A stretch of DNA of 64,000 nucleotides from an uncultured Muribaculaceae bacterium. GTDB lineage: Bacteria; Bacteroidota; Bacteroidia; Bacteroidales; Muribaculaceae. Made by a program: the position numbers and the translations under genes. Below are positions 6,424 to 24,803 of the stretch, piece by piece (the stretch's first letter is position 1; each line of letters starts with the position of its first letter). The stretch is taken from assembly GCA_964018265.1 (NCBI GenBank), contig CAXHOY010000008.1, positions 9,605-73,604 of the forward strand, in the 5' to 3' direction. The notes under the pieces were generated by a model that saw only the letters and a program-made list of their open reading frames with translations, had not been told where the DNA came from and did no database searches.

Positions 6424-7544
6424 CGTCAGTCATGCAGCCTTTTCTGAAATGGGCGGGCGGCAAAGAGAAAGAACTCAAACACATAGTCCCCGCATTGCCG
6501 GAGGACTATGTTGATTTTTATGAACCCTTTGTCGGCGGCGGTTCTGTTTTTGCCGCTTTGGAGGCCCGCCACAGCTATATCAATGATTTGTCAGACGAAT
6601 TGACGTCGTTCTACCGCATGGTGGCGCGTCACGATGCCCAATTTTTTGACGTCGTACGTCTTATCGACCGGGCATGGTCGGAGGCAGACCGTTTTTTTGA
6701 CAACTCACCGCGCCTATGTGAAATCTATGCATCCTTTCGCAGCGATGCCATAGACAAACGTGGCCTTGACGAAGCGATAGCCGGATTTTGTGAGGCAAAC
6801 CGCGGACGCATTATCGGAATCATCGACATGCGACTTGCCTTGGATCCTGAACGGCTTATAGCCGAACTCGGCCGGAATTTGAGTCGGAAACTGGTTAGGA
6901 TGAAGGATTTGGAGCGAAAAAAGCATTTGCTCCCAGACAGCGACATACGAGCCAATCTTCTCACGGCTGTCAAAAGTTCGCTCTACATGTATTTCCGCAG
7001 CCTGTATAACCGCCGCGATCTGTTGGCTCATGATCCGGCGCTTGGCGTGGCGCTGTTTCTGTTCATTCGCAATTATTGCTATAGCGGCATGTTCCGTTAC
7101 AACAATGCCGGTGAATTCAATGTGCCTTATGGCGGCATAGCATATAATGCCAAGTCAATGAAGCGTAAGATTGACTATTATGAGTCGCGCGAGGTGGCTG
7201 ACAGGATGATGCATACGACAATCTGTAACCTGGATTTTGAGCAATTTTTCATTGAAAATCAGCCCGGTCCGGCCGATTTTGTGTTCCTTGACCCGCCTTA
7301 TGACAGTGAGTTCAGCACATATGCCGGCAATGACTTCACACACGATGACCAGAGGCGCCTGGCAGACTATCTCATCAACCGATGTCAGGCAAGATGGATG
7401 CTTGTCATCAAACACACCGATTTTATCTATGGTCTCTATAATGTGCCAGGCATCAACATCCGGCGATTTGATAAAGAATATTTAGTCAGTTTCATGAACC
7501 GCAACGACCGCGCGGCCGTCCATCTTCTGATAACAAATTACTGA
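6420..7544 (+). CDS. Dam-family (D12-class) N6-adenine DNA methyltransferase
   Basis: PFLKWAGGK, YEPFVGGGSV (motif I), FRYNNAGEFNVPYG, catalytic FLDPPY; TTG start overlaps the upstream TGA, alternative ATG at 6432; specificity not inferable. Confidence 0.9.
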   Translation: MTSVMQPFLKWAGGKEKELKHIVPALPEDYVDFYEPFVGGGSVFAALEARHSYINDLSDELTSFYRMVARHDAQFFDVVRLIDRAWSEADRFFDNSPRLCEIYASFRSDAIDKRGLDEAIAGFCEANRGRIIGIIDMRLALDPERLIAELGRNLSRKLVRMKDLERKKHLLPDSDIRANLLTAVKSSLYMYFRSLYNRRDLLAHDPALGVALFLFIRNYCYSGMFRYNNAGEFNVPYGGIAYNAKSMKRKIDYYESREVADRMMHTTICNLDFEQFFIENQPGPADFVFLDPPYDSEFSTYAGNDFTHDDQRRLADYLINRCQARWMLVIKHTDFIYGLYNVPGINIRRFDKEYLVSFMNRNDRAAVHLLITNY

Positions 7545-7548
7545 TTAT

Positions 7549-8295
7549 ATGTCATGGAAAAAACTCACTGAGAATGATCTCGTCATACCTGTTATCGCAT
7601 ATCTTAAATCAAACGGTGGTTTTGCTGAAATCCGTCAGGTTAGAGATTATATACTTGCTACATATCCGCTGTCGGACAAGGACATAAAAATGTCAAAAAG
7701 ACGGCCGGGGGAGCATATGTTCGAACAACAGATACGCAATCTGACCTCCCATCATAAATTCGAAAAACTTGGTGTGGCTGATGCAGTCGATGGCGGATTC
7801 AGGCTTCGCGAAACAGCTGCAAAATTGATTGAAACAAGTCCTGAGTGGTTTTTTGAATATTTGTCGAGTGGATTGCGCGCTGATGTAATCAGACGTGAAA
7901 TCGAGTCTGTCGACTCAGGCAGGCGTCGTTTGAGCCTTGATGAAAGGGTCAATGAAGGCGAGAAAAAGACAGTTGAGTCAGTCATGCGTCGCTCACCTTC
8001 TTCAAAACTGAGGGATGCGGCCATTGAGAAATTCTCAAAAGACGGAGTAATCGCATGTTGCTGTTGCGGCATGACTTTTGAAGGAGTATATGGCGAGGCT
8101 TTTGGCCGCGATTGTATAGAAATCCATCATAAAAAACCGCTGTCGATGTATGATGACGCCGATCTTGGTCTTGAAATCAGAGAAGCACTTAAAAATGTAA
8201 TTCCGGTCTGTCCCAATTGCCACCGCGTCATACATCGCAATAAATTGTTTTCGGACAATGCCCTGCGCAAACTGCGTAAAATTTTAAAAAGATGA
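7549..8295 (+). CDS. HNH endonuclease with N-terminal Mrr_N-like winged-helix domain
   Basis: C-terminal McrA-type HNH: CCCCGMTF...IEIHHKKPL...NVIPVCPNCHRVIH; N-terminus (LVIPVIAYL..GG..V.D......LS..D.......G...FE..I) resembles Mrr N-terminal domains; visibly AT-richer than neighbours. Confidence 0.8.
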   Translation: MSWKKLTENDLVIPVIAYLKSNGGFAEIRQVRDYILATYPLSDKDIKMSKRRPGEHMFEQQIRNLTSHHKFEKLGVADAVDGGFRLRETAAKLIETSPEWFFEYLSSGLRADVIRREIESVDSGRRRLSLDERVNEGEKKTVESVMRRSPSSKLRDAAIEKFSKDGVIACCCCGMTFEGVYGEAFGRDCIEIHHKKPLSMYDDADLGLEIREALKNVIPVCPNCHRVIHRNKLFSDNALRKLRKILKR

Positions 8296-10514: not shown

Positions 10515-13500
10515 ATGAAAAAACTTATTATTGCGCTGGGTCTTTTTGTCCCGGTAGCGGCGGGCGCTATAACCCCTATGTGGTTGCGCGACGCCAAGAT
10601 TTCGCCCGACGGCTCGAAGATTGCATTTACCTATAAGGGAGACATATGGACTGTCCCGGTGGCCGGAGGCAGTGCCACCAGAGTGACGGCTACACCGGCC
10701 TATGAGGCCAATCCGGTGTGGAGTCCTGACAGTCGGCAATTGGCTTATGCATCTGACGAGCATGGAAATTTTGACGTTTTTGTTGTCAATGCCGAAGGCG
10801 GAGCTCCGCGTAGACTGACTTTCAATTCGGCTTCGGAAATACCCGAGTCTTTTACCTCCGATGGCGGCGCAGTGCTTTTTTCGGCGTCAATACAGGATCC
10901 GGCTGAAAGTGCTGTTTTCCCCACAGCCCGTATGACAGAACTCTACTCAGTGCCTGTCGCCGGAGGAGACCTGACGCAGGTGCTTGCAACTCCGGCACGC
11001 TATGTCAGCAATATAGCTTCGCGACCAGGGTCGTTCCTGTATCAGGATGTCAAAGGGCATGAGGATGAATGGCGCAAGCATCACACATCGTCTGTCACAC
11101 GCGACATTTGGGTCTATGATGCCGAAAGCGGCAAACACCGTAATCTCACAGCCCGTGGTGGCGAGGATACAAATCCTGTGGCAGGCGATGGTGAGACCTT
11201 CTATTTCCTGAGCGAACGCGACGGCAAGACTGTCAATGTCTACGAGGCTAATATGTCCAACCCATCGGCGGCCAAAGCTTTGACTTCGTTTGCGACACAT
11301 CCGGTGCGCTTCCTGTCGAGGTCTGAAAACGGTCGCCTCGCTTTTGCATATGACGGTGAACTGTATACAATGGACAAAGGCGGCGCTCCGGTCAAGGTGT
11401 CTATCGATCTCATTGACTCGGATACTAATCCGACCGACATGCTCAATGTCAGCGGTGCCCGCGGTGCTGTAGTGTCGCCCGACGGTAAGTCGGTGGCTTT
11501 TGTCTATCGCGGCAATGTTTTCGTGACCTCTGTCGAATATCCCACAACCAAACAGATCACCGACACACCCGAGGCGGAAAGCAACGTAAGCTGGTCGCCC
11601 GACTCAAAAGCTCTCATCTACACATCGGAGCGTGACGGCAAATATAATATCTATCGTGCGACGATGGCCCGCGCGGGAGAAGAGCCCAATTTTGCCAACG
11701 CCACACTCATCCAGGAGGATGCCTTGTTCAATCCTGACGAACATGAGCGCACGATGGCCGAACTGTCGCCTGACGGAAAGAAGCTTGCATTCATACTCGA
11801 CCGCACCAAACTTGCGGTCCGCGACATGACCACTGGCGAGGTGCGCGAACTCACCGACGGCTCGACCCACCGCCAGCGCGGTGGAGGCTTCGGCTACAGT
11901 TGGTCGCCTGACTCCAAATGGATTTGTCTTGAGATTATCGACCGCAAGCACGATCCTTACAGCGACATCGCCATCATCAATGTCGAGAGCGGAGAGATGA
12001 CCAATCTCACCAACAGCGGTTACTTTGACGAGTCTCCGCGATGGGCCATGGACGGCAATGCCATCATCTTCGGGTCGGAGCGCTACGGCATGCGTAACCA
12101 CGCGTCCTGGGGCTCGGAGATGGACGTCATGATTGTATTCCTCAACCGAGACGCCTACGATCGTTTCCGCCTGTCGGAAGAAGATTATGCTCTGGTCAAG
12201 GATATGGAAAAGAGCAACAAGAAGAACGACGAGGCGTCAGACACGAAGAAAAAATCTGGCAAGGACACAAAAAAAGATGACAAAGACGGTGCGAAGTCTG
12301 AAAGCGACAAGTCGATTAACGTTGAACTTGATGGCATAACAGAGCGCGTGATGCGCCTGACTCCGATGTCTTCCGATCTGTCGTCGTTTATAATTACAGG
12401 CGATGGCGAAACTCTATATTACATCACCCAGGGTCCGGAGAAAAAGCAATTATGGAAAATCGGTCTGCGCAAAGATGACATAAAACTGGTGTCGAACATC
12501 GACGGAGCATCTTATTTCGATGCGACCAAAGACGGCAAGACGCTTTTTGTGTTCGGGTCATCGATGAAAAAACTTGATCCCAAATCAGATAAACTGACTC
12601 CGGTCACAGCGTCAGCGCGCATGACTGTCGATCATGCCACCGAACGCGAGTATATGTTCGATAATATCTCGCGTGAGGTTGCCGAACGTTTCTACACGAC
12701 CGATCTCCATGGGGTTGACTGGCCTGCCATGACTGCCGCTTACCGCAAGTTCCTGCCTTATATCAATAATAACTATGATTTTGCAGAACTTGTCAGCGAA
12801 TGGTTGGGCGAACTTAACGTCAGCCATACCGGAGGACGCTTCGGAGGTAAAGCATCGGCCAACGCTGACCGCACAGCTTCGCTGGGTCTGATTTATGACC
12901 TGAATTATCCGGGACCCGGTCTCAAGGTCGCAGAGGTTGTGGCCGGAGGTCCCTTCGACCGCGCGTCATCGAAACTCACCAAGGGTTGTATAATCGATCG
13001 TATCAACGGACAGCCGGTTGATTTCAACGCCGATTATACGACTGTGCTCAACAATATCGCCGGAAAGAAAACTCTCGTGTCATTCCACAATCCGGCCACC
13101 GGAGCAAAGACCGACGAGGTCGTGTTGCCCGTATCTTCAGCAAAAATCAATTCATTGCTATATGACCGTTGGGTTCGCCGTCGCGCGGCAGAGGTTGACA
13201 GCCTGAGCGGTGGCCGACTCGGATATGTCCATATCCAGTCAATGGGCGATGATTCGTTCAGAAAGGTATATTCAGATGTCCTCGGCAAATATAACGACCG
13301 TGAAGGCATTGTCATCGACATCCGTTGGAATGGTGGCGGTCGTCTCCACGAAGACATCGAAATACTTTTCAGTGGCAAGAAATACTTCACCCAGGAAATC
13401 CGTGGCGAACAGACCTGCGATATGCCTTCACGCCGTTGGAACAAACCTTCGGTCATGCTGATGAGCGAGGCTTGCTATTCTAATGCACATGGCACCCCCT

Positions 13501-13775
13501 GGGTCTATAAACATCGCGGTCTCGGCAAACTTGTCGGCATGCCTGTCCCCGGCACGATGACTTCAGTCAATTGGGTCACAATGCAGGATCCGTCGCTCAT
13601 ATTCGGTATCCCTGTTGTCGGTTACCGTCTGGCGGATGGCACAGTGCTCGAAAATCAGCAACTCGAACCTGACGTTAAGATAGCCAATGATCCTGCCACT
13701 GTAGTCAAAGGAGAGGACCTTCAGTTGAAAGCCGCCGTCGAGGAACTGCTCAAAGAGATTGACGCCGCTAAATAA
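10515..13775 (+). CDS. Tricorn-like S41 peptidase (PD40 beta-propeller repeats, PDZ, S41 domain)
   Basis: Signal peptide; repeated WSPD/SPDG propeller motifs; GELNVSHTG, DIRWNGGG, CYSNAH, GKLVGMPVPG. Confidence 0.92.
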   Translation: MKKLIIALGLFVPVAAGAITPMWLRDAKISPDGSKIAFTYKGDIWTVPVAGGSATRVTATPAYEANPVWSPDSRQLAYASDEHGNFDVFVVNAEGGAPRRLTFNSASEIPESFTSDGGAVLFSASIQDPAESAVFPTARMTELYSVPVAGGDLTQVLATPARYVSNIASRPGSFLYQDVKGHEDEWRKHHTSSVTRDIWVYDAESGKHRNLTARGGEDTNPVAGDGETFYFLSERDGKTVNVYEANMSNPSAAKALTSFATHPVRFLSRSENGRLAFAYDGELYTMDKGGAPVKVSIDLIDSDTNPTDMLNVSGARGAVVSPDGKSVAFVYRGNVFVTSVEYPTTKQITDTPEAESNVSWSPDSKALIYTSERDGKYNIYRATMARAGEEPNFANATLIQEDALFNPDEHERTMAELSPDGKKLAFILDRTKLAVRDMTTGEVRELTDGSTHRQRGGGFGYSWSPDSKWICLEIIDRKHDPYSDIAIINVESGEMTNLTNSGYFDESPRWAMDGNAIIFGSERYGMRNHASWGSEMDVMIVFLNRDAYDRFRLSEEDYALVKDMEKSNKKNDEASDTKKKSGKDTKKDDKDGAKSESDKSINVELDGITERVMRLTPMSSDLSSFIITGDGETLYYITQGPEKKQLWKIGLRKDDIKLVSNIDGASYFDATKDGKTLFVFGSSMKKLDPKSDKLTPVTASARMTVDHATEREYMFDNISREVAERFYTTDLHGVDWPAMTAAYRKFLPYINNNYDFAELVSEWLGELNVSHTGGRFGGKASANADRTASLGLIYDLNYPGPGLKVAEVVAGGPFDRASSKLTKGCIIDRINGQPVDFNADYTTVLNNIAGKKTLVSFHNPATGAKTDEVVLPVSSAKINSLLYDRWVRRRAAEVDSLSGGRLGYVHIQSMGDDSFRKVYSDVLGKYNDREGIVIDIRWNGGGRLHEDIEILFSGKKYFTQEIRGEQTCDMPSRRWNKPSVMLMSEACYSNAHGTPWVYKHRGLGKLVGMPVPGTMTSVNWVTMQDPSLIFGIPVVGYRLADGTVLENQQLEPDVKIANDPATVVKGEDLQLKAAVEELLKEIDAAK

Positions 13776-14813: not shown

Positions 14814-14887
14814 CAAAACTCCGTGATTTTTTCGACAACAGAGCTTAAGTTTTTTGAGTGAGCCGCCTTATTTTCGCCATTATTGCT

Positions 14888-14895
14888 TAACTTTG
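14888..14895 (+). promoter_or_regulatory. -7 promoter element (TAACTTTG) for the PEP-synthase-like gene
   Basis: Consensus TAnnTTTG 28 bp before ATG 14923; argues against the track start at 14854. Confidence 0.65.
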
Positions 14896-14922
14896 CTGAA
14901 ACTATTAGACCTGAGCGGAAAA

Positions 14923-17892
14923 ATGAACGAGGAAGCCCTGAGCCAATTATATCTCAAAGACACCGCATTCCAGAAACTGATGCAGAAGCGCATTTTCAAT
15001 GTGCTGCTTATCGCGTCGCCCTACGATGCGTTTATGATGGAGGAAGACGGCCGCGTTGAAGAACAGCTGTATTTTGAGTACGTGTCCCTCAACCTGAGTT
15101 CGCCGCCGCGAGTTACGCGTGTGTCATCATCGGCCGACGCGGTCGAGGCTCTCAAGGCAAATCATTTCGATCTGGTGATAACTATGCCGAGCATGGATAT
15201 CTCTGAGACATTTTCCGGTGCTGCCGACATCAAGGCTGTCGATCCGACGATACCGGTCGTGGTGTTGACACCATTCTCAAAAGAAGTCTCGCGCCGGCTC
15301 GAAAATGAAGACTTCACCCATGTCGATTATGTGTTCAGTTGGTTGGGCAACATGGATCTCCTTCTTGCCATCATCAAGCTTATCGAAGACAAGATGAATG
15401 CCGACGACATCACAGATGTCGGGGTGCAGATGCTATTGTTGGTTGAGGATTCGGTGAGGTTTTATTCGTCGATATTACCGACGGTCTATAAGTTTCTGCT
15501 CAAACAGTCGATGGTCTTTTCAACAGAGGCCCTCAATGAGCATGAGCAGCGCCTGCGCATGCGGGGACGCCCTAAGGTGATGCTTGCCCGCGATTACGAG
15601 GAGGCCCGTGACCTATTTGAAAAATATAAGGACAACATACTCGGTGTGATAAGCGACGTGTCGTTCAAACGCGGCGGCGAGAAGGACTCTCAGGCCGGAA
15701 TAAAGCTGGCAGAGTATATCCGCTCCCGTTCGCCATATCTTCCGATTATCATAGAGTCGAGCGAGATCGAGAATGCCGGTCGTGTATCCTCATTCAGCGG
15801 TGTTTTCCTCGACAAAAATTCGAAAAAACTGCCGGTCGACCTTGGAGAGGCCATCATGAGCAATTTCGGCTTCGGTGATTTTGTTGTCCGTGATCCGGCA
15901 ACCGGTTGTGAGATAATGCGTCTGAAGGAGTTGAAAGACATGCAGAAAAATATTTTTGCAATCCCTGATGAAGCGCTATTCCATCATGCGTCGACCAACG
16001 ACATCTCGCGTTGGTTTTATTCGAGAGCCTTATTCCCGATAGCCGAGGTTATAAAACAACATCGGTTCCGTTCGCTCGACGAGGCGCCTGCCGTAAAGCA
16101 ATTGTTCTTTGACCTGATCGTCAAATACCGCAAGATGAAAAACCGCGGTGTTGTGGCGGTTTTCCGTAAGGATCGCTTCGACTATTATTCAAACTTTGCC
16201 CGCATCGGAGACGGCAGTCTCGGCGGCAAGGGACGTGGCCTTGCGTTTGTCGATTCGATAATCAAGAAAAATCCTGTATGTGACAACTTTTCGGGTGTCA
16301 CCATCTCGATACCGCGCACGGTCGTGCTGTGTACGGATGTTTTTGATGAGTTCATGTCTGACAACGGACTCTATCCATTGGCTTTGAGCGACGCACCCGA
16401 TGACGAAATCCTGAGGGCTTTTATCGCCGCCAAGTTGCCCGACCATCTGATAGACGACTTTTTTGCGCTCTTTGAAGTTATAGACCGGCCCTTGGCCATC
16501 AGAAGCTCGAGCTTACTCGAAGACTCGCATTATCAGCCCTTCGCCGGCATTTACTCGACATATATGATACCATATGTCGAAGACAGCGCCGAGCGTCTGC
16601 GCATGCTTGTCGAGGCAGTCAAAGGCGTCTATGCGTCAGTTTTCTATAAGGCCAGCAAGGCATATATGTCAGCGACCAGCAATGTCATAGACCAGGAGAA
16701 GATGGCTGTGATCATCCAGGAGGTCATCGGTGAGGATCATTCCGGTTACTATTTTCCGTCGTTTTCGGGAGTCGGTCGCTCGCTCAATTACTATCCGATA
16801 GGAGAGGAGACGACCGAAGACGGGGTTGCCGAGGTTGCGGTCGGACTCGGAAAGTATATCGTCGACGGAGGTCTGAGCCTGCGCTTCTCTCCGCGTCATC
16901 CCGATAAAGTGCTGCAGACATCGACTCTCGAACTGGCTTTACGCGATACGCAGAACGAACTGTATGCCCTTGGCCCGAACGATTCTTCGCTTGAGATGTC
17001 GTCTGACGATGGTTTCAACATTGTCAGGAAGGCGGTCAGGGATTTTGCGGGAACCGGTGCCTTGCGCTATCTCGTGTCAACCTTTGATCCTCAGAACGGC
17101 ATATTGATGGATTATGACGCACCCGGACGCGGACGCAAGGTGGTGACTTTTGCCAATGTGTTGCGCGATAAAGTGTTCCCGCTTGCACCTGCAGTAGATT
17201 TCATGCTTAAACAAGGGCAGACTGAGATGCAGCGTCCTGTCGAAATCGAGTTTGCCGGCAACATTTATCCGGCTCCTACGGCCGACGGCATCAAAGGCCA
17301 TATATATTGGCTTCAGATACGTCCGATAATAGACAAAAAAGAGAATGTCGATGAGACGGCTTTGAATGCCGACGACGAGAAACTGATACTTCGCAGCAAC
17401 ACTGCGCTCGGACATGGAAACATCGACGGTGTCCGCACTGTGGTGTATGTGCGACCCGAAAGTTTCAACTCTCTTGACAATCCGGCTGTTGCCCTCGAAC
17501 TCAACGGTCTCAACCGACGTCTTGTCGATGACGGTGAACCTTATGTGCTGATAGGGCCCGGTCGCTGGGGTTCGAGTGATCCGGCGCTTGGCGTACCGGT
17601 AAAATGGCCCGATATTTCCGGCGCACGGCTCATTGTGGAGTCGTCTTTGAGCAACTATCGCATTGAGCCAAGCCAGGGCACACACTTTTTCCATAATCTG
17701 ACTTCTTTCGGGGTGGGGTATTTCACCATCAATCCATTCAGTGACGACGGTCTGTATGATGTGGCGTTTCTCGATGGCTATCCGGCTGTCTACGAATCAG
17801 AGCATCTCAGAATTGTCCGTTTCGACAGTCCGCTTGTTGTGGCAATTGACGGGCGTAAGGGTAAAGGAGTCGTGTTCAAACCTGATTTTTAA
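14923..17892 (+). CDS. PEP/pyruvate-binding (PPDK_N) domain protein with N-terminal receiver-like domains
   Basis: Receiver-like segments (VLLIAS..D, DLVITM; LLLVEDS, GVISDV), then RIGDGSLGGKGRGLAF, LAIRSSSLLEDS...PFAGIY, MAVIIQEV, VEIEFA, WLQIRP of the dikinase nucleotide-binding domain; C-terminal SQGTHFFHNL. Confidence 0.82.
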   Translation: MNEEALSQLYLKDTAFQKLMQKRIFNVLLIASPYDAFMMEEDGRVEEQLYFEYVSLNLSSPPRVTRVSSSADAVEALKANHFDLVITMPSMDISETFSGAADIKAVDPTIPVVVLTPFSKEVSRRLENEDFTHVDYVFSWLGNMDLLLAIIKLIEDKMNADDITDVGVQMLLLVEDSVRFYSSILPTVYKFLLKQSMVFSTEALNEHEQRLRMRGRPKVMLARDYEEARDLFEKYKDNILGVISDVSFKRGGEKDSQAGIKLAEYIRSRSPYLPIIIESSEIENAGRVSSFSGVFLDKNSKKLPVDLGEAIMSNFGFGDFVVRDPATGCEIMRLKELKDMQKNIFAIPDEALFHHASTNDISRWFYSRALFPIAEVIKQHRFRSLDEAPAVKQLFFDLIVKYRKMKNRGVVAVFRKDRFDYYSNFARIGDGSLGGKGRGLAFVDSIIKKNPVCDNFSGVTISIPRTVVLCTDVFDEFMSDNGLYPLALSDAPDDEILRAFIAAKLPDHLIDDFFALFEVIDRPLAIRSSSLLEDSHYQPFAGIYSTYMIPYVEDSAERLRMLVEAVKGVYASVFYKASKAYMSATSNVIDQEKMAVIIQEVIGEDHSGYYFPSFSGVGRSLNYYPIGEETTEDGVAEVAVGLGKYIVDGGLSLRFSPRHPDKVLQTSTLELALRDTQNELYALGPNDSSLEMSSDDGFNIVRKAVRDFAGTGALRYLVSTFDPQNGILMDYDAPGRGRKVVTFANVLRDKVFPLAPAVDFMLKQGQTEMQRPVEIEFAGNIYPAPTADGIKGHIYWLQIRPIIDKKENVDETALNADDEKLILRSNTALGHGNIDGVRTVVYVRPESFNSLDNPAVALELNGLNRRLVDDGEPYVLIGPGRWGSSDPALGVPVKWPDISGARLIVESSLSNYRIEPSQGTHFFHNLTSFGVGYFTINPFSDDGLYDVAFLDGYPAVYESEHLRIVRFDSPLVVAIDGRKGKGVVFKPDF

Positions 17893-17915: not shown

Positions 17916-19280
17916 ATGTCCATCTTTAATACAATAAAAAAGTCGCTCGGTTTTGGCAATGATGTCGATGACGAATTGCTTGATGACACTACGGATGCAG
18001 CTGAAAGCCCCGAACAAGCGAGGGCTGAGCGTGAGACCATAGAACAGGGTCAGGAGCACGAAAGCGAGGCAATAGCAATAGACCGGGACAAGGCCGATAT
18101 GATTTTTGACCGTGTGGTCAGCGTCTTCAACGAAGCGCTTCCTTCTTTTCTGCGTGACTGTGTTGACGAGACGGCGCAACGCAAGAAATTGTACGAAGGC
18201 CTGGATTCATCGCTCAAGGAGTATATTGAATCAGTCAGCAAGGAGACCCGTCGTCAATGCGAGTCACGCTGGGCGTCAGAGCAGGCGTCGATGCGCAATG
18301 AGATGGACAGTCTGCGCTCAAAAGCAAAAGAAATAGAACAACAGCGTTTTGACATCAAGCAGCAGCAATTGAGCGCTGACCGTCAGAAACGCGCTCTCAC
18401 AGACCGTCTTCATGACCTTGAAGCTCAGGTGGGCCGTCTCGAAGCCGAACGCGAGCAGTTTGATCTCGAGAACAAAAGTCTCGTAAACAAACTCAAGGTT
18501 GCCGGAGTCCATGAGGCAGAGATTGAAAACCTGCAGCAATTGCTCACCGACGCCAAGTCCGAAATATCCAGGCTAAGGTCCGGTTCGGAAGCAGCCCCTG
18601 TTGAAGACAGCGGAAAAATCAGCGAGCTTGAGGCCCGTAATGCAGCTCTCGAGGAGCAGCTTGAGGCGGCGGCCGAAAAAGACCGTATATCAACCGAGAT
18701 GTTCAACAGCCTTCAATCGCGTGCTTCTGAAGCGAGAGATGAGAATGAGAAGCTATTGGCGACAATCGAGGAACTCCGCAAAAAGCTTGAAGAGGCGGAG
18801 GCTTATAAGGCTGAGGTTGCTGAAATAGGTCGTCAGGTCGAGCAGTTTGAGGAGATCATCACTAAGCGTGAACGCAAGATTGAAAAACTTAAGGACACTT
18901 GCCGCACACTTCGCGACGAAAATGCATCACTCCAAAAGACTATCGCTGACAATCTGAAAACTTATGCCGAGTCTGAGGCATCGCTGACAGCACGTATCAT
19001 GGAACTTGAAGCTGACCCCACAGTGCCGATCGTAGCTTCAGATCTGGAGTCGTATACAGATAAGGCTATAGAAAAAGCGGAAGAGGATGCTGCGGTCAAG
19101 ATCTCTGACGGTGATCTTGCAGCGATAGAAGAAAGTTTTGACTCGGAAGACTGGATGCGCAGCGACCCGCCAGAAACTCCATCCATGCGCACCGGTGTCA
19201 GCGAAGCCGAGTTTGGCTATCAGGCTCCGACACGCAAGACTCCGCGCCATGACAACGATGCTCAGTTATCTCTCTTCTAA
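17916..19280 (+). CDS. Long coiled-coil protein with C-terminal QLSLF motif
   Basis: Heptad-rich E/K/Q/R/L composition over about 300 aa; amphipathic N-terminus MSIFNTIKKSLGFG; ends DAQLSLF*. Confidence 0.85.
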   Translation: MSIFNTIKKSLGFGNDVDDELLDDTTDAAESPEQARAERETIEQGQEHESEAIAIDRDKADMIFDRVVSVFNEALPSFLRDCVDETAQRKKLYEGLDSSLKEYIESVSKETRRQCESRWASEQASMRNEMDSLRSKAKEIEQQRFDIKQQQLSADRQKRALTDRLHDLEAQVGRLEAEREQFDLENKSLVNKLKVAGVHEAEIENLQQLLTDAKSEISRLRSGSEAAPVEDSGKISELEARNAALEEQLEAAAEKDRISTEMFNSLQSRASEARDENEKLLATIEELRKKLEEAEAYKAEVAEIGRQVEQFEEIITKRERKIEKLKDTCRTLRDENASLQKTIADNLKTYAESEASLTARIMELEADPTVPIVASDLESYTDKAIEKAEEDAAVKISDGDLAAIEESFDSEDWMRSDPPETPSMRTGVSEAEFGYQAPTRKTPRHDNDAQLSLF

Positions 19281-19425: not shown

Positions 19426-21630
19426 ATGAATGCTATCATAAAATATTCGCTATGCGGAGCCATGCTGATGGTTTCCGGTAGTTTCACCGCTGATGCAGCA
19501 GGTGCTCGTTCGCCGTATGTCAGCGGCATTTCGACATATGTCTATCCCGAGAATGCACCCAAGTCTCCTTCTAACTTTGTATACATGCCCGACGGCCAGA
19601 GCTATCTCACTCTTTCGCCTGACCATCGTTCGATTGTAAGATACGAGACCAAAAGCGGCAAGGAGATGGAAGTCTTTGTCGATCTGACCAATACACGTGA
19701 GACGACCATCGAGGATATCGACGGTTTCACGCTCAGCGGAGATGCGACAAAGGTGCTTGTCTATCGCAACCGCAAGCCGATCTACAGGCGGTCGTTCACT
19801 GCGGAGTATTATGTCTATGAAGTGCGCTCGCGCCTGTTGCGTCCGCTGTCTGTCGAACACAGCTCGCAGCGTTCGCCTCTGTTTTCGCCCGACTCTCGTA
19901 TGGTGGCCTTTGTCGCTGACAATAACATATTCATAAAGAAACTTGACTACAACACCGAGACCGCGGTCACCGAAGATGGAGCTGAAGGACGGATTATCAA
20001 CGGCGTGAGCGACTGGACCTATGAGGAAGAGTTCTCCACCACCTGCTCGATGGCCTGGTCGCCTGACAATCTGACCTTATGTTATGTGAAATATAATGAA
20101 AGTGAAGTGCCGACTTACACTCTGCCAATCTATGGAGGCAGCTGTCATCAGGATGAGCGCTACGCTTATTATCCCGGAGTCTATTCCTACAAGTATCCCG
20201 TGGCCGGAGCTGTCAACTCGCGTGTCTCAATCCATAGCTACGACGTCGACAACCGCAAGGTCAAAGATATCGTTCTCAAAGACGCAACGATCGAATATAT
20301 CCCGTCTATCATATTTGCTCCAGCAGGAAATGTGTTGATTGCTCCTACGCTCAACAGAGAGCAGAACCGTCTGGAAATCTACAGCATCAATCCAAAATCG
20401 ACGGTCGTGAAGTCAATTTACACCGAGACTTCGCAGACATGGGTGTCGCCGGAGACATATGAGAATATCAGTTATGGAGAAGATGGCATGGTCATTCTTT
20501 CAAGCAAAAGCGGTTATGCCCATTTGTATAAATATTCATATACCGGCACTGAATTGCGTCAGCTTACCACCGGCGAATTTGACGTGACGGCATATTATGG
20601 AACCGACGCTGCGGGTAACATCTACTATCAGTCGGCGACCCCGTCACCCCTTGACCGCACGGTCAAGTGCATTGACCGAAAGGGCGTGACACGCAGTGTT
20701 GGAGATGCAAAGGGTTGGAACTCAGCTCAATTTTCGCCTGATATGGATTATGTGTTGCTGAATTACAGTGACGTCAATACCCCTCCTGTCTACACACTAT
20801 GTACGCCTGCAGGCAAGGCTCTGCGCACAGTCGAGGACAATGCGGCCTATCGTTCGCGTTACGAAGGAAAGATACCGGCAAAGGAGTTCTTCACATTCAA
20901 GAGCGACGGCTATGAGCTTAATGGCTATATAATCAAACCTGCGCAGTTCTCGTCGGGCAAGAGATATCCGGTTGTGATGACTCAGTACAGCGGTCCGGGT
21001 TCGCAGAGCGTGGTCAACCGTTGGCAGATGGACTTTGACTACTATTATGCCATGCAGGGCTATGTTGTTGTCTGTGTCGATGGACGAGGCACAGGAGGCC
21101 GGGGACGTCAGTTTATGGATGTAGTCTATAAACAGCTGGGCCACTACGAGACAATTGATCAGATCAATGCCGCCAACCATGTCGCATCATTGCCATATGT
21201 CGACGGAAAGCGTATCGGCATCTGTGGATGGAGCTATGGCGGATATGAGGCGTTGATGTGTGCGACAGAGGCCGAAAACCCATTTGCGGCTGCGGTTGCC
21301 ATCGCTCCCGTGACAGACTGGCGTTATTATGACACGGTCTACGCCGAGCGATATATGTCGACCCCTCAGATCAACGACGAAGGATATCGCCGCTCTGCGC
21401 CTCTCAACCGAACCATGAGGCTTCAATGTCCGTTATTGATGATGTATGGAACTGCTGATGACAATGTGCATCCGGCCAATACGCTTGAGTTTGTATCCCG
21501 TCTGCAGAGCCAGGGATTGATGTGCGACATGTTTGTCTTCCCGAACATGAATCATTCAATCAATGGTTGCAACACACGTTCACTGGTCTACGCCAGGATG
21601 CTTGAATTTTTTGACAAGAACCTGAAATAA
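19426..21630 (+). CDS. dpp4: Dipeptidyl peptidase IV (S9B)
   Basis: NGVSDWTYEEE, YPVAG, QYSGPGSQ, catalytic GWSYGGY, GTADDNVH, NMNHSI. Confidence 0.93.
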   Translation: MNAIIKYSLCGAMLMVSGSFTADAAGARSPYVSGISTYVYPENAPKSPSNFVYMPDGQSYLTLSPDHRSIVRYETKSGKEMEVFVDLTNTRETTIEDIDGFTLSGDATKVLVYRNRKPIYRRSFTAEYYVYEVRSRLLRPLSVEHSSQRSPLFSPDSRMVAFVADNNIFIKKLDYNTETAVTEDGAEGRIINGVSDWTYEEEFSTTCSMAWSPDNLTLCYVKYNESEVPTYTLPIYGGSCHQDERYAYYPGVYSYKYPVAGAVNSRVSIHSYDVDNRKVKDIVLKDATIEYIPSIIFAPAGNVLIAPTLNREQNRLEIYSINPKSTVVKSIYTETSQTWVSPETYENISYGEDGMVILSSKSGYAHLYKYSYTGTELRQLTTGEFDVTAYYGTDAAGNIYYQSATPSPLDRTVKCIDRKGVTRSVGDAKGWNSAQFSPDMDYVLLNYSDVNTPPVYTLCTPAGKALRTVEDNAAYRSRYEGKIPAKEFFTFKSDGYELNGYIIKPAQFSSGKRYPVVMTQYSGPGSQSVVNRWQMDFDYYYAMQGYVVVCVDGRGTGGRGRQFMDVVYKQLGHYETIDQINAANHVASLPYVDGKRIGICGWSYGGYEALMCATEAENPFAAAVAIAPVTDWRYYDTVYAERYMSTPQINDEGYRRSAPLNRTMRLQCPLLMMYGTADDNVHPANTLEFVSRLQSQGLMCDMFVFPNMNHSINGCNTRSLVYARMLEFFDKNLK

Positions 21631-21645
21631 CAAATCAGCATAAAT

Positions 21646-22938
21646 ATGCCAAACCGTCATATTATATCATCCGGTGCGGTCAGAGCGATGTGGAACAATT
21701 GGGCGATTGCTTTCGGAGCGCTCGCCTGTGTGATAATTGGCTCTCTGTTCATCCCGAAATTATGGCTTCCGTTGCTACTGTTCATCGGAGCATATCTGCT
21801 ATCTGCCAGATTGAAATTTGAAAGTGGCCGCACAAAGATTGCTGGCTGCAATCTCATAGTGTGGTCAATGGTCTGGATACTTGTGTGGTCGGCCATAGTG
21901 ATGTGTGTTATCAACGTGTTGTATGCCAAATGGTTTGTCAATGGAGTGTATCCGATTGACCCTATCAATCCCAAGCATCCTTATGTTTGCTCGCTCATCC
22001 TTTTCCCGACTGCGGCTGTAGTCAGCATCTATATGCTGCTGCGTCGCCGACGCGGAACACATTGCCGCAAATGTCTGGCGCGATTTGGCTATTATTCGAC
22101 TTCTGACAAAGCAGTCGCGACGCTCTATTTTCACGAGACGCGCTATCAGCTTCGCTTGATGCTGGGGTTGTCGCTGGTGTTGAGTGTGGTTGACTGGTTC
22201 TATTATTTCAAGTATTATATCAATGTCAACTATAACACTCCCGACCGTTTCTTTTATATCATAATGCCGATAGCCATCTATATACTTTCGCTTGTCTATA
22301 TGACGATGCGCTATATGTCGATGGCCGAGGAACTTACTGTGCCTCGTGGTGGCACAGTCGCACGGCCTATGATGACGCTCGTGCGTTATCTGGTGTTTTC
22401 GGGCGATGCCGTCTTTCTTGATGCGGGCGATGACGGGCGTATGGACACTCCGGCGCTGATGATGATGCCGCGTAAGGAGACCATGCCTGACGACGAAGCT
22501 TCGAAGTTTTTCCGGGATATGTCTGATGAAAAGGATTTCGAACTGAAATATCTGTATACAGACTCGGGCTTTGCGACCGGCGCCAATGTGTTCCACTTTG
22601 CGGTTTTCGTGCCCGAAACCGAGCGGGCCATGTCGCTCCACGGACAGTGGCTCACCATTGATGAACTTGACCGCATGCTAAAGGGTGGCAGACTCGCGCC
22701 CATGCTGCTGAGCGAGATTAACCGCATCTATCGTGTGACCATGGCTTGGAAGACTTATGACCGGAACGGGCGTCGCCTCTATCCGATCAAGAATTATCAG
22801 CCGACATTCCGTTTCCGCGATTTCAAGAATTGGAATGTGGACTATAATGATCTGAGTTGGCTCGACATCGCGGCTAATAATGAGGACAGGCCGTTCTACA
22901 GATTGCGCCGTTTCTGGCAAAAGCATTTCAGACACTGA
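21646..22938 (+). CDS. Conserved hypothetical polytopic membrane protein with soluble C-terminal domain
   Basis: About 6 hydrophobic helices, a cytoplasmic CRKC motif, soluble C-terminus; 15 bp from dpp4 and 4 bp from miaA. Confidence 0.8.
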   Translation: MPNRHIISSGAVRAMWNNWAIAFGALACVIIGSLFIPKLWLPLLLFIGAYLLSARLKFESGRTKIAGCNLIVWSMVWILVWSAIVMCVINVLYAKWFVNGVYPIDPINPKHPYVCSLILFPTAAVVSIYMLLRRRRGTHCRKCLARFGYYSTSDKAVATLYFHETRYQLRLMLGLSLVLSVVDWFYYFKYYINVNYNTPDRFFYIIMPIAIYILSLVYMTMRYMSMAEELTVPRGGTVARPMMTLVRYLVFSGDAVFLDAGDDGRMDTPALMMMPRKETMPDDEASKFFRDMSDEKDFELKYLYTDSGFATGANVFHFAVFVPETERAMSLHGQWLTIDELDRMLKGGRLAPMLLSEINRIYRVTMAWKTYDRNGRRLYPIKNYQPTFRFRDFKNWNVDYNDLSWLDIAANNEDRPFYRLRRFWQKHFRH

Positions 22939-22942
22939 CCCA

Positions 22943-23863
22943 ATGGCGGAAATATTGTTCATATGCGGGCCGACGGCCTCCGGTAAGACATCGCTTGCTG
23001 TTGATGTGTCCAAAGCTATAGACGGGGAGATTATCAGCGCTGATTCGCGCCAGATATACCGCGGCATGGATCTTGGAACCGGCAAGGATCTCGATGAGTA
23101 TGGGACAGTGGCTTATCATCTGATAGATATCGCTCCGGCAGGCTATAAGTACAATCTGTTTGAATATCTGCGTGATTTCGATCTTGCGCGGAAGGATATA
23201 GAGTCGCGTGGCAGGTTTCCTGTCGTCTGCGGTGGAACAGGCCTCTATGTTGAGTCTGCCCTCAAAGGGCTTCATCTCCCGGAAGTGCCTGAAAACAAGT
23301 CATTGAGACAGCGCCTCGAAGGTTTGACCCTTGGAGAGCTAAGCGAGATTTTGGCCGAAATGAAATCTCTGCATAATACAACAGACATCGACACGGCCAA
23401 ACGTGCCATAAGGGCAATCGAGATCGAGACATATTACAGGGAACATCCAGAGGCTGCGGCGCAGGCTCGGCCTGAACCTCTGAAAGGCGCGGTGACGGTG
23501 GGCGTTGAAATCGACCGGGACAGCCGGCGCAGCCGCATCACAAGCAGGCTCAAGTCACGTCTCGACGCCGGCATGGTTGATGAGGTGAAATCACTTATCG
23601 ACAGTGGTATCAAGCCTGATGACCTGATCTATTATGGGCTCGAATACAAATATCTCACGTTATATGTCACCGGACGTATGACCTATGATGAGATGTTCAC
23701 TTCGCTTGAAATTGCTATCCACCAGTTTGCCAAACGTCAGATGACATGGTTCAGAGGCATGGAACGGCGTGGTTTCAATATACACTGGCTCCCGTGGGAC
23801 ATGGAGCGCAATGAAGCCGTAGATATAATCAAGCATCTTATTGCCGATGAAGACCGGTCATAG
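22943..23863 (+). CDS. miaA: tRNA dimethylallyltransferase
   Basis: GPTASGKT P-loop, ISADSRQIYRGMDLGTGK, HLIDI, GGTGLY, FAKRQMTWFR; start MAEILF at 22943. Confidence 0.95.
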   Translation: MAEILFICGPTASGKTSLAVDVSKAIDGEIISADSRQIYRGMDLGTGKDLDEYGTVAYHLIDIAPAGYKYNLFEYLRDFDLARKDIESRGRFPVVCGGTGLYVESALKGLHLPEVPENKSLRQRLEGLTLGELSEILAEMKSLHNTTDIDTAKRAIRAIEIETYYREHPEAAAQARPEPLKGAVTVGVEIDRDSRRSRITSRLKSRLDAGMVDEVKSLIDSGIKPDDLIYYGLEYKYLTLYVTGRMTYDEMFTSLEIAIHQFAKRQMTWFRGMERRGFNIHWLPWDMERNEAVDIIKHLIADEDRS

Positions 23864-24803
23864 TCATATCGCTCTGTTGCTGTCTTTGGCTTCTGCATTG
23901 ACGATGTCGGGTGAGGAACATTACCATGTTGCGCCAATCGAGCTCAAAGCAGGAACCGTGATGACTGACAGTGTCGAGGCCGGTGCGCAACAATGGAGCT
24001 TTCATTGTCGTGTCGAACTGCCCAAGTCTTCTGCCGGGCCATGTTGGGAGATTGTTGTCAAGGGAGACAATGGCGGTCAGACAGGTATAAAACTTGAACG
24101 AAAGGGCCTGAAATCAGCTGATTTTGATTACGAGCCGGCGCTTGAAATCACTTTATCAACCGATGGTGCCGAAAAGAAGTTGACTATAGACCGAGGCATT
24201 GATCCATCGCTTGACGGATGGTCTGTGGTGCTTGAAAGAGTGCTTGGGGCTGACAGCATAGACTGTCGTGTCGGTCAACGTATGCCGTTGGAGACTTTTA
24301 GGATTGCTTTGCCCGAAGGTCCGGTGGTGCTGTCGTTGGAAGCTTTTACGGCGCTTGGTCTGTCGCGCATGTCTCTATTGAGCGATCACGTGCTTGCCGA
24401 CCGTGCTCCTGTGAGATTTGAAACAGTCGAAGATATTGATGCCTATCTTTCCGAGTCGTCGGATGCGGTCGAGCGTAAATGGTGTTATCTCGACCGGGAT
24501 ACAGACCAACGGGTCTTGAATCTTGGCGGTGATTATAAACTTGCGACCATAAAACGTCAAGACGGCGCATATGACCTCGTCTATATTGAAGGCGCAAGGG
24601 TCAATGGCGTCAATTGGAAGCCGATGATGATAAAAGGACGTCTTAAGCCGACTCCATTTGTCAATCACTTCGATCTGGTGTGGTATGATGCCTATGGACG
24701 TGAGGTGGATACTGATACAAGTGCAGATATCATCGACACGTCAATCCTGAAACTCAATTTCCCGCTGCAGGGTGGGGTTGTGCGTTTTCGCTCTATGCCC
24801 TGA
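23847..24803 (+). CDS. Exported hypothetical protein
   Basis: Signal-peptide-like N-terminus (HIALLLSLASALTMS), beta-rich body; overlaps the miaA stop. Confidence 0.7.
   Translation: MKTGHSHIALLLSLASALTMSGEEHYHVAPIELKAGTVMTDSVEAGAQQWSFHCRVELPKSSAGPCWEIVVKGDNGGQTGIKLERKGLKSADFDYEPALEITLSTDGAEKKLTIDRGIDPSLDGWSVVLERVLGADSIDCRVGQRMPLETFRIALPEGPVVLSLEAFTALGLSRMSLLSDHVLADRAPVRFETVEDIDAYLSESSDAVERKWCYLDRDTDQRVLNLGGDYKLATIKRQDGAYDLVYIEGARVNGVNWKPMMIKGRLKPTPFVNHFDLVWYDAYGREVDTDTSADIIDTSILKLNFPLQGGVVRFRSMP

Follow-up and report, generated by a model that had tools for sequence, protein, structure and literature searches.

A gene of Muribaculaceae encodes a 454-residue coiled-coil protein in which an amphipathic N-terminal helix and a C-terminal peptide of the DnaN clamp-binding type stand at opposite ends of two long helices, and which represents a previously undescribed family. 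The protein is best read as a cytoplasmic, non-enzymatic scaffold that forms dimers, probably lies peripherally on the membrane and would dock on DnaN; the probability of this reading is put at roughly one half. Because the N-terminal helix, the long coiled coil and the conserved clamp-motif peptide are combined in one protein, the family is, judged from sequence, a strong candidate for a protein that physically joins replicating DNA to the cell membrane. The gene lies in a stretch of 64 kb, called here the window.

Anatomy, neighbourhood and range of the family

The translated product begins with MSIFNTIKKSLGFG and ends in RHDNDAQLSLF, directly before the stop codon, and its ATG start is backed by an N-terminus that is conserved in more than 270 distinct homologues (Table 1). 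The AF2 model contains helices at residues 2-10 and 57-95, two long helices at 98-222 and 232-366 and a short helix at 398-409, with disorder at residues 11-56 and 367-397 and in the tail past 409. Neither a signal peptide nor a transmembrane segment was found in the 454-residue sequence or in the AF2 model, and the protein should therefore share the compartment of DnaN, the cytoplasm. The first-pass annotation of this DNA had called the protein non-enzymatic, and searches of Pfam, NCBIfam, PDB sequences and Foldseek-PDB indeed returned no enzymatic domain. Its description of the tail as acidic and proline-rich agrees with the 21 Asp or Glu and 7 Pro of residues 366-454. The long helices that it reported are also present, at a length of about 260 residues in the AF2 model rather than about 300. 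A coiled-coil dimer or oligomer is the most that the sequence implies, and the filament that it had proposed is unsupported. The coiled-coil core at residues 151-195, the tail motifs of fixed spacing and the linkage to an upstream gene were all absent from that annotation.

Table 1. Features of the coiled-coil gene and its neighbours (positions in the window)
Feature	Position	Strand	Basis
Upstream gene, 989-1012 aa, REC-like N-terminus and PPDK_N ATP-grasp	14854..17892	+	ORF, domains
Whole ORF, 454-aa coiled-coil protein	17916..19280 (stop codon counted)	+	ATG start
Amphipathic basic N-terminal peptide, aa 1-14, MSIFNTIKKSLGFG, putative membrane-targeting helix	17916..17957	+	AF2 helix 2-10, conservation
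Acidic disordered linker, aa 15-56, poorly conserved	17958..18083	+	pLDDT, conservation, charge
Conserved helical head, aa 57-125, IFDxVVxxFNEALPxFLxxSVDxEAQRKxLYxxLDxSxKxY...CExRW	18084..18290	+	alignments, AF2
Two long helices, 98-222 and 232-366, short break between, aa 98-366	18207..19013	+	DSSP of AF2, heptad scan
Near-invariant coiled-coil core, aa 151-195, QLSADRQKRALxDRxHDLExQxxxLEAEREQxDLENKSLVNKLKV	18366..18500	+	alignments, AF2
Short acidic helix motif in tail, aa 396-413, ISDGDLAAIEESFDSEDW	19101..19154	+	AF2 helix 398-409, alignments
Pro-rich tail motif PPETPSMR, aa 418-425	19167..19190	+	alignments
Aromatic/basic tail motif FGYQAPTRK, aa 433-441	19212..19238	+	alignments, homologue tails
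DnaN clamp-binding-type pentapeptide QLSLF, aa 450-454	19263..19277	+	match to consensus, conservation, codons
Conserved downstream block	19426..23863	+	synteny
DPP-IV/S9 peptidase	19426-21630	+	downstream block
430-aa membrane protein	21646-22938	+	downstream block
miaA	22880-23863	+	downstream block

The helical head comprises AF2 helices at residues 57-74, 77-80 and 85-95 together with the start of 98-222. Residues F64, P76 and F78 are invariant in the head, and conservation reaches at least 90% at I63, V67, F71, N72, L75, D84, Q88, L96 and D97. The two long helices, of about 130 residues each, are modelled with pLDDT of 90-97, and the second of them (232-366) differs between family members both in sequence and in length. 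The core at residues 151-195 has a mean column conservation of 0.75-0.85, the highest of the whole protein, with 13 invariant positions and pLDDT above 93; it probably provides a dimerisation register as well as a surface for a partner or for DNA.

The upstream gene, which encodes a protein with PPDK_N and REC-like regions, stops 23 bp before the coiled-coil ATG with no terminator in between, and the two genes are therefore probably co-transcribed. In 76 of 80 loci it is the immediate same-strand neighbour on the upstream side (median gap 39 bp); this tight linkage is conserved and not universal, with the gene missing in locus L081. Fragments of the coiled-coil gene occur in RNA-type runs as short contigs of low depth, none of which spans the junction of the two genes. 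The scan for promoters and terminators was uninformative, because the sigma-70 consensus that it used is ill-suited to Bacteroidota. The genes of the conserved downstream block accompany the coiled-coil gene as synteny only, and nothing evident links their functions to that of its product. The neighbours (PPDK_N/REC-like, DPP-IV and miaA) offer no context of replication or division, and no dnaN lies within the 64-kb window.

The family holds at least 481 clusters at 50% identity. Its range was examined with word-indexed searches, some of which used profiles built on the most divergent branches, with a genome scan and with an exhaustive HMM search for which taxonomy was taken from the best 150 of 1213 matches; a pattern for the core at residues 151-195 found 196 genome loci. 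Except for a few MAGs with loose labels, the organism names of homologues are all Muribaculaceae, and no named relative outside Muribaculaceae was found among the word-indexed and genome-scan matches or the best 150 of 1213 HMM matches, a range narrower than the Bacteroidales that the first-pass annotation had named.

Searches with Pfam, NCBIfam, PDB sequences (single and profile) and Foldseek-PDB found no relatives in family or structure, and returned generic coiled coils below threshold, among them Fib_alpha, SMC arms, the YabA coiled coil and designed coiled coils; for the long helices too, PDB profile and Foldseek matches were to generic coiled coils only. Homology to YabA, to SMC and Rad50 and to crescentin and similar proteins was rejected on this ground. 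The likeness to SMC proteins lies in long coiled coils and in weak profile matches to SMC/Rad50 arms, PDB 5xg2 among them, but the protein has neither ATPase head nor hinge. SMC models scored 18-21 bits against cut-offs of 567-729, over coiled-coil stretches only, and Rad50 models 10-17 bits against 700-1000, with no P-loop domain in Pfam. YabA scored 15.0 bits in Pfam against a cut-off of 30, over residues 302-349 of the coiled coil only, and E = 0.63 in NCBIfam. No core-domain match to SepF (PF04472), DivIVA, GpsB or EzrA was obtained with Pfam at E <= 1, a PDB profile search or Foldseek. The names "Chromosome segregation ATPase" and "DUF342 coiled-coil" that databases attach to homologues are automated labels, an artefact of the coiled coil, and a literature search found no account of such a protein.

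The C-terminal pentapeptide

The clamp-binding consensus is Q-L-[S/D]-L-F, or more generally Qxx[L/M]x0-1[F/L], with Q1 and L4 as its key positions (PMC3971601). The C-terminal QLSLF of Bacillus subtilis PolC is a functional clamp-binding motif for which DnaN binding has been measured (PMC12309361). The first-pass annotation had placed QLSLF as the last five residues of the coiled-coil protein, which is exact on the translation, and had asked whether QLxLF is kept at the extreme C-terminus of orthologues. A pentapeptide Q-[L/M]-[S/T/L]-L-[F/W] is present at, or a few residues from, the C-terminus in 367 of 378 distinct homologue tails, with the constraint on Q1 and L4 of the clamp consensus: position 1 is Q in 363 of the 367, position 4 is L in all, and position 5 is F in 219 and W in 148. 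Variation is confined to L or M at position 2, S, T or L at position 3 and F or W at position 5, although a few branches have P instead at position 2. Loss of the motif in orthologues, which would have spoken against the first-pass annotation, is thus not observed. Close homologues keep the motif in 204 of 205 cases, when the QMSLDF-like variant of P0143 is counted in.

The tail around QLSLF has pLDDT of 49-59 and no secondary structure in the AF2 model, as befits an exposed and flexible peptide. A match to the consensus, conservation among orthologues with drifting flanks and an exposed cytoplasmic terminus, which are sequence traits of a protein with a clamp-binding motif, are thus present. 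Docking on DnaN through this peptide is graded as somewhat better than an even bet.

A chance QLSLF on an ordinary coiled-coil protein would have the shortness of the motif in its favour and nothing else, and its probability is negligible. The exact pentapeptide is expected at a fixed position with a chance of about 9e-7, or about 0.003 times per proteome of 3000 proteins, but the motif is conserved across the clusters of the family while the remaining tail drifts. In 80 loci it is encoded by 65 distinct 15-nucleotide strings that use all six Leu and all six Ser codons, a synonymous turnover which indicates that selection acts on the peptide and not on the DNA. Within the window and related loci (1.26 Mb, 1703 ORFs of at least 100 residues), the motif occurs within the last nine residues of 80 ORFs, all of this family, and of none of the approximately 1,620 others. 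Conservation in homologues, codon turnover and absence from other ORFs together refute a chance origin. Known clamp binders that carry the motif were sought in the same DNA as a lineage-specific control, and none was found.

A hydrophobic C-terminus on a disordered tail could also be a tag for degradation or processing, in the form of a C-terminal degron that a protease or adaptor recognises. This is very improbable, given that 55 of the 367 tails (15%) continue for one to nine further residues, mostly acidic, past the F or W with the motif intact, which is incompatible with the reading of a free hydrophobic C-terminus. Since a free C-terminal carboxylate is evidently unnecessary, the appended residues suit a clamp-binding motif and not a reader of that carboxylate. 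C-degrons are not known to be marked by an invariant Q at the fifth residue from the end.

Conservation in the tail extends beyond the pentapeptide. The C-terminal consensus of the family is P-[DE]-N-x-A-Q-[ML]-S-L-[FW], and an FGYxxPxRK block lies 16-17 residues before the terminal Q in 322 of the 336 tails that have the block, to give a bipartite motif FGYxxPxRK-(16-17 aa)-QLSLF; some branches carry an Arg/Lys-rich stretch in place of the block. Farther upstream, in the acidic helix motif, conservation of 90% or more is found at W413 in both alignments and at I396, S397, L401, E405 and F408 in alignment A1. In the Pro-rich motif P418 reaches the same level in both, P419 in alignment A3, and S423 and R425 in A1. 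The tail can be represented by a short peptide, DNDAQLSLF, or by a longer one, EFGYQAPTRKTPRHDNDAQLSLF. Six of 134 new representatives lack any tail, and may be truncated contigs or genuine tail-less forms.

These further constraints bear on a different explanation, in which a scaffold, cytoskeletal or division protein would present its C-terminal peptide to the hydrophobic groove of some lineage-specific partner other than DnaN, and in which the likeness to the clamp motif would be incidental. The P-[DE]-N-x-A stretch and the FGY at 16-17 residues exceed the known needs of the clamp pocket, the gene context is unrelated to replication, and short linear motifs can have more than one reader, though we know of no alternative reader of QLSLF-type peptides. 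The classical consensus (PMC3971601) includes neither the P at position 2 nor the W that 40% of tails carry at position 5. A partner other than DnaN is nonetheless unlikely, given that the conserved and variable positions coincide with those of the clamp-binding consensus and that this very pentapeptide has been validated by experiment as a ligand of the clamp (PMC12309361).

Docking on DnaN would place the protein beside PolC, other polymerases, Hda and MutS, which are carriers of the Dalrymple pentapeptide QL[S/D]LF. The C-terminal QLSLF of PolC is identical and binds DnaN (PMC12309361), and the hierarchy of Q1 and L4 is the same (PMC3971601). In contrast to PolC, Hda and MutS, the carrier here has no catalytic or DNA-processing domain and adds FGYxxPxRK at a fixed upstream spacing.

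The N-terminal peptide

The family consensus of the first 14 residues is M-S-F-F-x-x-[IL]-K-[RK]-[AS]-[FL]-G-F-[GS]. Across 276 distinct 14-mers, hydrophobic residues occupy positions 3, 4, 7 and 11 and basic ones positions 8 and 9, the mean muH is 0.655, and 83% fall within the top 10% of their own shuffles. The peptide has a charge of +2, and residues 15-40 of the linker that follows have a family mean net charge of -6.7. Over residues 15-56, pLDDT is mostly below 50 (43-51 per block of ten residues) and conservation is 0.15-0.43. [quoted passage not shown]

The peptide can be compared with the N-terminal membrane-targeting helices of SepF and, as a lead only, of Noc. In SepF, a basic amphipathic N-terminal peptide of about 14 residues binds lipid and needs the avidity of an oligomer (PMC7118173). 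SepF is built from this peptide, a disordered linker of about 50 residues and an oligomerising core (PMC7118173), and the same M-L-C layout is seen here. The short, basic, amphipathic N-terminal helix followed by a long disordered linker thus corresponds to a SepF-type anchor, a likeness in how it would work and not in homology. Unlike SepF and Noc, the protein has no SepF core or ParB-like domain in Pfam, and the partner at the other end, FtsZ for SepF and DNA for Noc, would here be DnaN. Binding to the membrane through the N-terminal peptide is given slightly less than even odds.

The peptide could instead bind a protein. G12 is invariant in an alignment of 75 sequences, and K8 and F13 are nearly so; this exceeds the strictness of the usual membrane-targeting helix and points to a particular protein as its partner, and the near-invariant core likewise points to a specific partner. 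On such a view the protein would be a hub with no membrane role, a soluble oligomer like YabA or CrfC that sits on DnaN through its C-terminal motif while the N-terminal peptide and the core bind proteins such as DnaA or a division or segregation protein, with the effect that initiation is regulated or sister forks are held together. All of the clamp-motif evidence fits this equally. YabA, which controls replication initiation in Bacillus and other Firmicutes (PF06156), is likewise small and non-enzymatic, oligomerises through an N-terminal coiled coil, binds both DnaN and DnaA, and is located at the replisome as a structural hub on the clamp. However, YabA has about 120 residues, binds its partners through a C-terminal Zn-binding domain rather than a terminal QLSLF and has no N-terminal amphipathic peptide. 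The dynamin-like CrfC of Escherichia coli is described in PMC6374313 as a non-polymerase oligomer on the clamp, proposed to keep nascent sister DNA together and to aid nucleoid partition. CrfC is a GTPase of the dynamin family, whereas no NTPase domain is present in the protein described here, most of which is coiled coil and whose motif is C-terminal. The tail holds no Cys/His cluster of the kind expected for the Zn-binding domain of YabA. A purely soluble hub is held to be improbable, in that neither that domain nor a dynamin GTPase domain is present and the amphipathic pattern, the +2 charge and the acidic disordered linker reproduce the membrane-anchor layout of SepF.

A proposed tether between clamp and membrane

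For the membrane-peripheral scaffold, the following mechanism can be put forward. The long helices would pair to form a parallel dimer or a higher oligomer, which would display at least two N-terminal amphipathic helices and at least two flexible C-terminal tails. Each basic 14-residue helix, on its acidic linker of about 45 residues, would bind the inner membrane peripherally and in an avidity-dependent, SepF-like manner. The terminal Q-[L/M]-S-L-[F/W] would enter the hydrophobic pocket of DnaN, with the FGYxxPxRK block at its fixed distance probably forming a second contact with the same partner. Clamps, and hence replisomes or newly replicated DNA that still bears loaded clamps, would in this way be tethered to the membrane and/or to further partners, which might bind the near-invariant core and the other tail motifs. 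The full tether model is tentative and rather doubtful as a whole.

A more specific version, held to be somewhat less probable still, is that of a membrane-anchored clamp receptor, in which dimers at the inner membrane would catch the DNA-loaded DnaN rings left behind the fork. New DNA or the replisome would then be pinned to the membrane by a replication-dependent, Noc-like bridge, and the core and tail motifs could report replication status to the segregation or division machinery. If this is true, a membrane tether that reads the sliding clamp itself as its mark would be without precedent.

Confirmation would give the clamp interactome a new architectural class, that of the non-enzymatic and membrane-tethered coiled coil, and would make a natural extended ligand, FGYxxPxRK-x-PxNxAQ[ML]SL[FW], available to work on binding to the clamp pocket. 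Muribaculaceae are dominant in the mouse gut and common in the human gut. To our knowledge, replication control, chromosome segregation and their coupling to division are essentially uncharted in Bacteroidota, and most regulators described in E. coli and Bacillus are not known in these bacteria. A membrane-type anchor and a textbook clamp-docking peptide, joined in one family-wide protein, offer a concrete and cheaply testable entry point.

Architecture of the coiled-coil protein

The coiled-coil gene and its terminal QLSLF lie where the first-pass annotation had placed them, and its description of an N-terminal helix, a coiled coil and an acidic, Pro-rich flexible tail proved right throughout, both by sequence and in an AlphaFold2 model. 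The model, with 75 diverse homologues as input and a mean pLDDT of 77, contains a short helix at aa 2-10, a mostly disordered segment of low confidence that reaches aa 56, and short helices between aa 57 and 95. Two very long helices follow (aa 98-222 and 232-366; pLDDT 90-97). A disordered stretch (aa 367-397) and a short helix (aa 398-409) then lead into a tail that is disordered to the C-terminus; aa 366-454 include 21 Asp/Glu and 7 Pro. The protein has neither signal peptide nor membrane span, which places it in the same compartment as the sliding clamp, DnaN.

Aligned with its homologues, which range from about 400 to 670 aa, the protein is modular, and its tail is a series of short motifs. 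The core is the best-conserved region, with a column conservation of 0.75-0.85 and 13 invariant residues. G12 is invariant in the 75-sequence alignment, with conservation of 90% or more at K8 and F13. Searches of curated families, solved structures and a fold library gave no match past generic coiled-coil similarity, and none of the papers searched describes the family. Members are named in their sources as "hypothetical protein" or carry automated coiled-coil labels ("chromosome segregation ATPase", "DUF342"). Membership of YabA, CrfC, SepF, Noc or SMC was rejected, given that profile cut-offs were missed and the Zn domain, GTPase, SepF core and SMC heads are lacking.

Features of the window and segments of the coiled-coil protein (nt unless marked aa)
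Feature	Position	Strand	Description
DUF4435 + AAA_21 protein	1120-2697	+	OLD/abortive-infection-like ATPase domain pair
ORF starting MQPFLKWAGGKEKEL	6432-8295	+	few kb downstream of DUF4435 + AAA_21 gene
Tricorn-like protease	10515-13775	+	1086 aa; PD40 repeats, Tricorn_C1, Peptidase_S41
REC-like/PPDK_N protein	14854-17892	+	989-1012 aa; receiver-like N-terminus, PPDK_N ATP-grasp domain
Coiled-coil protein	17916-19280	+	ATG start, 454 aa; N-terminus MSIFNTIKKSLGFG, C-terminus ...TPRHDNDAQLSLF (stop)
N-terminal peptide	aa 1-14		M-S-F-F-x-x-[I/L]-K-[R/K]-[A/S]-[F/L]-G-F-[G/S]
Linker	aa 15-56		acidic, without conservation
Helical head	aa 57-125		conserved
Core	aa 151-195		QLSADRQKRALxDRxHDLExQxxxLEAEREQxDLENKSLVNKLKV
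Coiled coil	aa 196-366		variable in sequence and length
Tail motif	aa 396-413		ISDxDLxAIEESFxxxDW
Tail motif	aa 418-425		PPxTPSMR
Tail motif (FGY block)	aa 433-441		FGYQxPxRK
C-terminal tail motif			P-[D/E]-N-x-A-Q-[M/L]-S-L-[F/W]
QLSLF pentapeptide	19263-19277	+	last residues of coiled-coil protein
Membrane protein	21646-22938	+	430 aa, multi-pass; between DPP-IV and miaA
Protein with signal-peptide-like N-terminus	23841-24803	+	318-320 aa; after miaA
LptD_2 outer-membrane protein	34558-37338	-	
Topoisom_bac ORF	39745-41583	-	611 aa; type IA topoisomerase core domain only
SprA	46129-53589	-	2486 aa; type IX secretion translocon
RuvA	53641-54225	-	

The terminal pentapeptide and the sliding clamp

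The terminal QLSLF is confirmed to be far beyond chance. The chance of an exact match at one fixed position is about 9e-7, which amounts to about 0.003 matches per proteome, and coincidence can be given next to no weight. The motif, Q-[L/M]-[S/T/L]-L-[F/W], ends 0-4 residues from the C-terminus in all 205 close homologues except a truncated entry and a variant resembling QMSLDF. When 1.84 billion representatives were searched exhaustively with a profile, 481 clusters (50% identity) came back at E <= 1e-30. This search yielded 134 new representatives, 116 of which keep the motif; 12 have near variants (QPSLF, LPSLF, QTSLW, QRSLF, QMSLPF and others), and six, which may be truncated, have no tail at all. 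C-terminal conservation of QLxLF in orthologues, the check chosen beforehand, was clear, with the motif in 367 of 378 distinct tails. Within these 367, Q is present in 363 and L4 in all, position 2 is M or L, position 3 is S in 309, and position 5 is F (219) or W (148). Of the 1703 ORFs with 100 aa or more (1.26 Mb, the window plus related loci), the motif falls within the last nine residues of only 80, every one of them a member of this family. The coding of the five residues is diverse: the 80 genomic loci have 65 different 15-mers for them, in which both Gln codons and every one of the six Leu and six Ser codons (from both Ser families) occur. Selection therefore acts on the peptide rather than on a DNA or RNA element.

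Position by position, the invariant and variable residues agree with the published clamp-binding consensus (PMC3971601), and the C-terminal QLSLF of Bacillus subtilis PolC is a functional clamp-binding motif with a measured affinity for DnaN (PMC12309361). The coiled-coil protein has every sequence-level attribute of a clamp-binding-motif protein. We infer that it binds DnaN, with a probability of about 0.55, and clamp binding is the best available reading of the tail. A scaffold whose tail binds some other partner is unlikely beside this agreement with the consensus. No dnaN lies within the 64-kb window.

In 15% of distinct tails, 1-9 mostly acidic residues follow the F/W, so a free terminal carboxylate is not needed. 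These extensions argue against PDZ-type and SSB-tip-like readings and against a C-terminal degron, which is very improbable, and they fit a clamp motif. Clamp motifs function internally as well as terminally.

The FGY block stands 16-17 residues ahead of Q in 322 of the 336 tails that possess it, and the intervening residues are poorly conserved. Since this spacing is fixed within a disordered segment, the block and the terminal motif are suggested to form one bipartite binding site. In some branches an Arg/Lys-rich stretch stands in for the FGY block, and it may be an alternative second contact, perhaps DNA-binding. Such a stretch occurs just ahead of the terminal motif in, for example, family proteins P0230, P0278, P0322 and P0339 (L082 3980-5206, L082 being one of the family's loci). 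Because these branches still keep both termini, no features of the family are more persistent than its N-terminal peptide and its terminal pentapeptide.

Genomic setting and range

In 76 of 80 Muribaculaceae loci the REC-like/PPDK_N gene shares the strand of the coiled-coil gene and lies directly 5' of it (median gap 39 bp). In the window its stop is 23 bp ahead of the coiled-coil ATG, and no terminator-like site was found between them. Its start codon could be either TTG at 14854 or ATG at 14923. The receiver-like N-terminus scores just under the Response_reg cut-off (29.5 bits), and similarity to PEP synthase, PigC/RedH ligases and rifampicin phosphotransferase is partial and far sub-threshold. 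Its conservation, at 70-90% identity, far exceeds that of the coiled-coil gene. It is missing at L081, the locus of a divergent 671-aa member, so the pairing is not obligatory.

On the 3' side, synteny extends over DPP-IV, the membrane protein and miaA, in 57-62 of 80 loci as well as at L081 and L082. The membrane protein has no match in Pfam or NCBIfam, is kept in 58 of 80 loci, shares 36-39% identity at L081 and L082, and overlaps the annotated miaA start by 59 bp at its 3' end. The 318-320-aa protein, also without a family match, follows miaA in 35 of 80 loci and is weakly conserved (28-31% identity) at L081 and L082. None of these flanking genes points to replication or division, and conserved gene order inside one bacterial family says little about function. 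RNA-type runs contain short contigs of the coiled-coil gene, about as deep as those of the genes beside it, which is compatible with expression but does not prove it.

The tricorn-like protease falls inside the 8-kb flank examined but, unlike the genes to its right, is missing from all 80 related loci, which implies a synteny break between the protease and efp or the PPDK_N gene. The ORF starting MQPFLKWAGGKEKEL, near the window's left end, looks by its sequence alone like a Dam-type DNA methyltransferase, and together with the DUF4435/AAA_21 gene it may make up a small island of defence or restriction genes. The Topoisom_bac ORF has no Toprim domain at E <= 1e-5, which may reflect a wrongly called start or an unusual short topoisomerase. 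SprA, LptD_2 and RuvA are ordinary landmarks that identify the window as Bacteroidota chromosome rather than a mobile element.

The first-pass interpretation is partly supported: conservation of the motif held up, clamp binding is the likeliest reading of it, and in place of a filament the sequence implies no more than a coiled-coil dimer or oligomer. Its Bacteroidales-wide scope gives way to a demonstrated range of Muribaculaceae; the best 150 of 1213 exhaustive-search matches were read, and weaker relatives may exist outside. Organism names among the matches listed are all Muribaculaceae, save a few loosely labelled MAGs (Barnesiella, Bacteroides, Odoribacter sp.) with the same synteny at the loci examined. 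The DPP-IV and MiaA neighbours at L081 are as similar to their window counterparts as other Muribaculaceae copies are. The window itself occurs in mouse-gut metagenomes.

The N-terminal peptide and a possible membrane tether

Across 276 distinct 14-mers, positions 3, 4, 7 and 11 are hydrophobic, 8 and 9 basic, and 10 small. Residues 2-11 have a mean helical hydrophobic moment of 0.655, with 83% of sequences ranking within the top 10% of shuffled versions of themselves, and the peptide's net charge of +2 is followed by -6.7 across residues 15-40. The first 14 residues of SepF bind vesicles, and oligomer avidity is needed for its hold on the membrane (PMC7118173). The coiled-coil protein has the same order of membrane peptide, disordered linker and core, but since it has no SepF domain the comparison is one of functional analogy, not homology. 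A coiled-coil dimer would provide such avidity, and by this analogy the protein may bind the membrane, at slightly less than even odds. Given how strictly G12, K8 and F13 are kept, the peptide may instead be protein-binding. In mode of working, the non-enzymatic clamp hubs YabA and CrfC are closest to the coiled-coil protein, and at the N-terminus it is similar to the SepF or Noc anchors; a soluble hub of the YabA or CrfC type is an improbable reading.

Members of the family are candidate clamp-interacting proteins of novel, non-enzymatic and possibly membrane-anchored architecture. In the complete membrane tether, which is doubtful as a whole, the long coiled coils would pair into a dimeric or oligomeric scaffold, the N-terminal helices would place it peripherally at the inner membrane, and the C-terminal motif would dock it on DnaN with assistance from the FGY block, leaving the invariant core and other tail motifs open to further partners. 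Clamps are described in PMC4284645 as building up on DNA behind the fork, so the scaffold would fasten replisomes, or DNA that has just been replicated, to the membrane.
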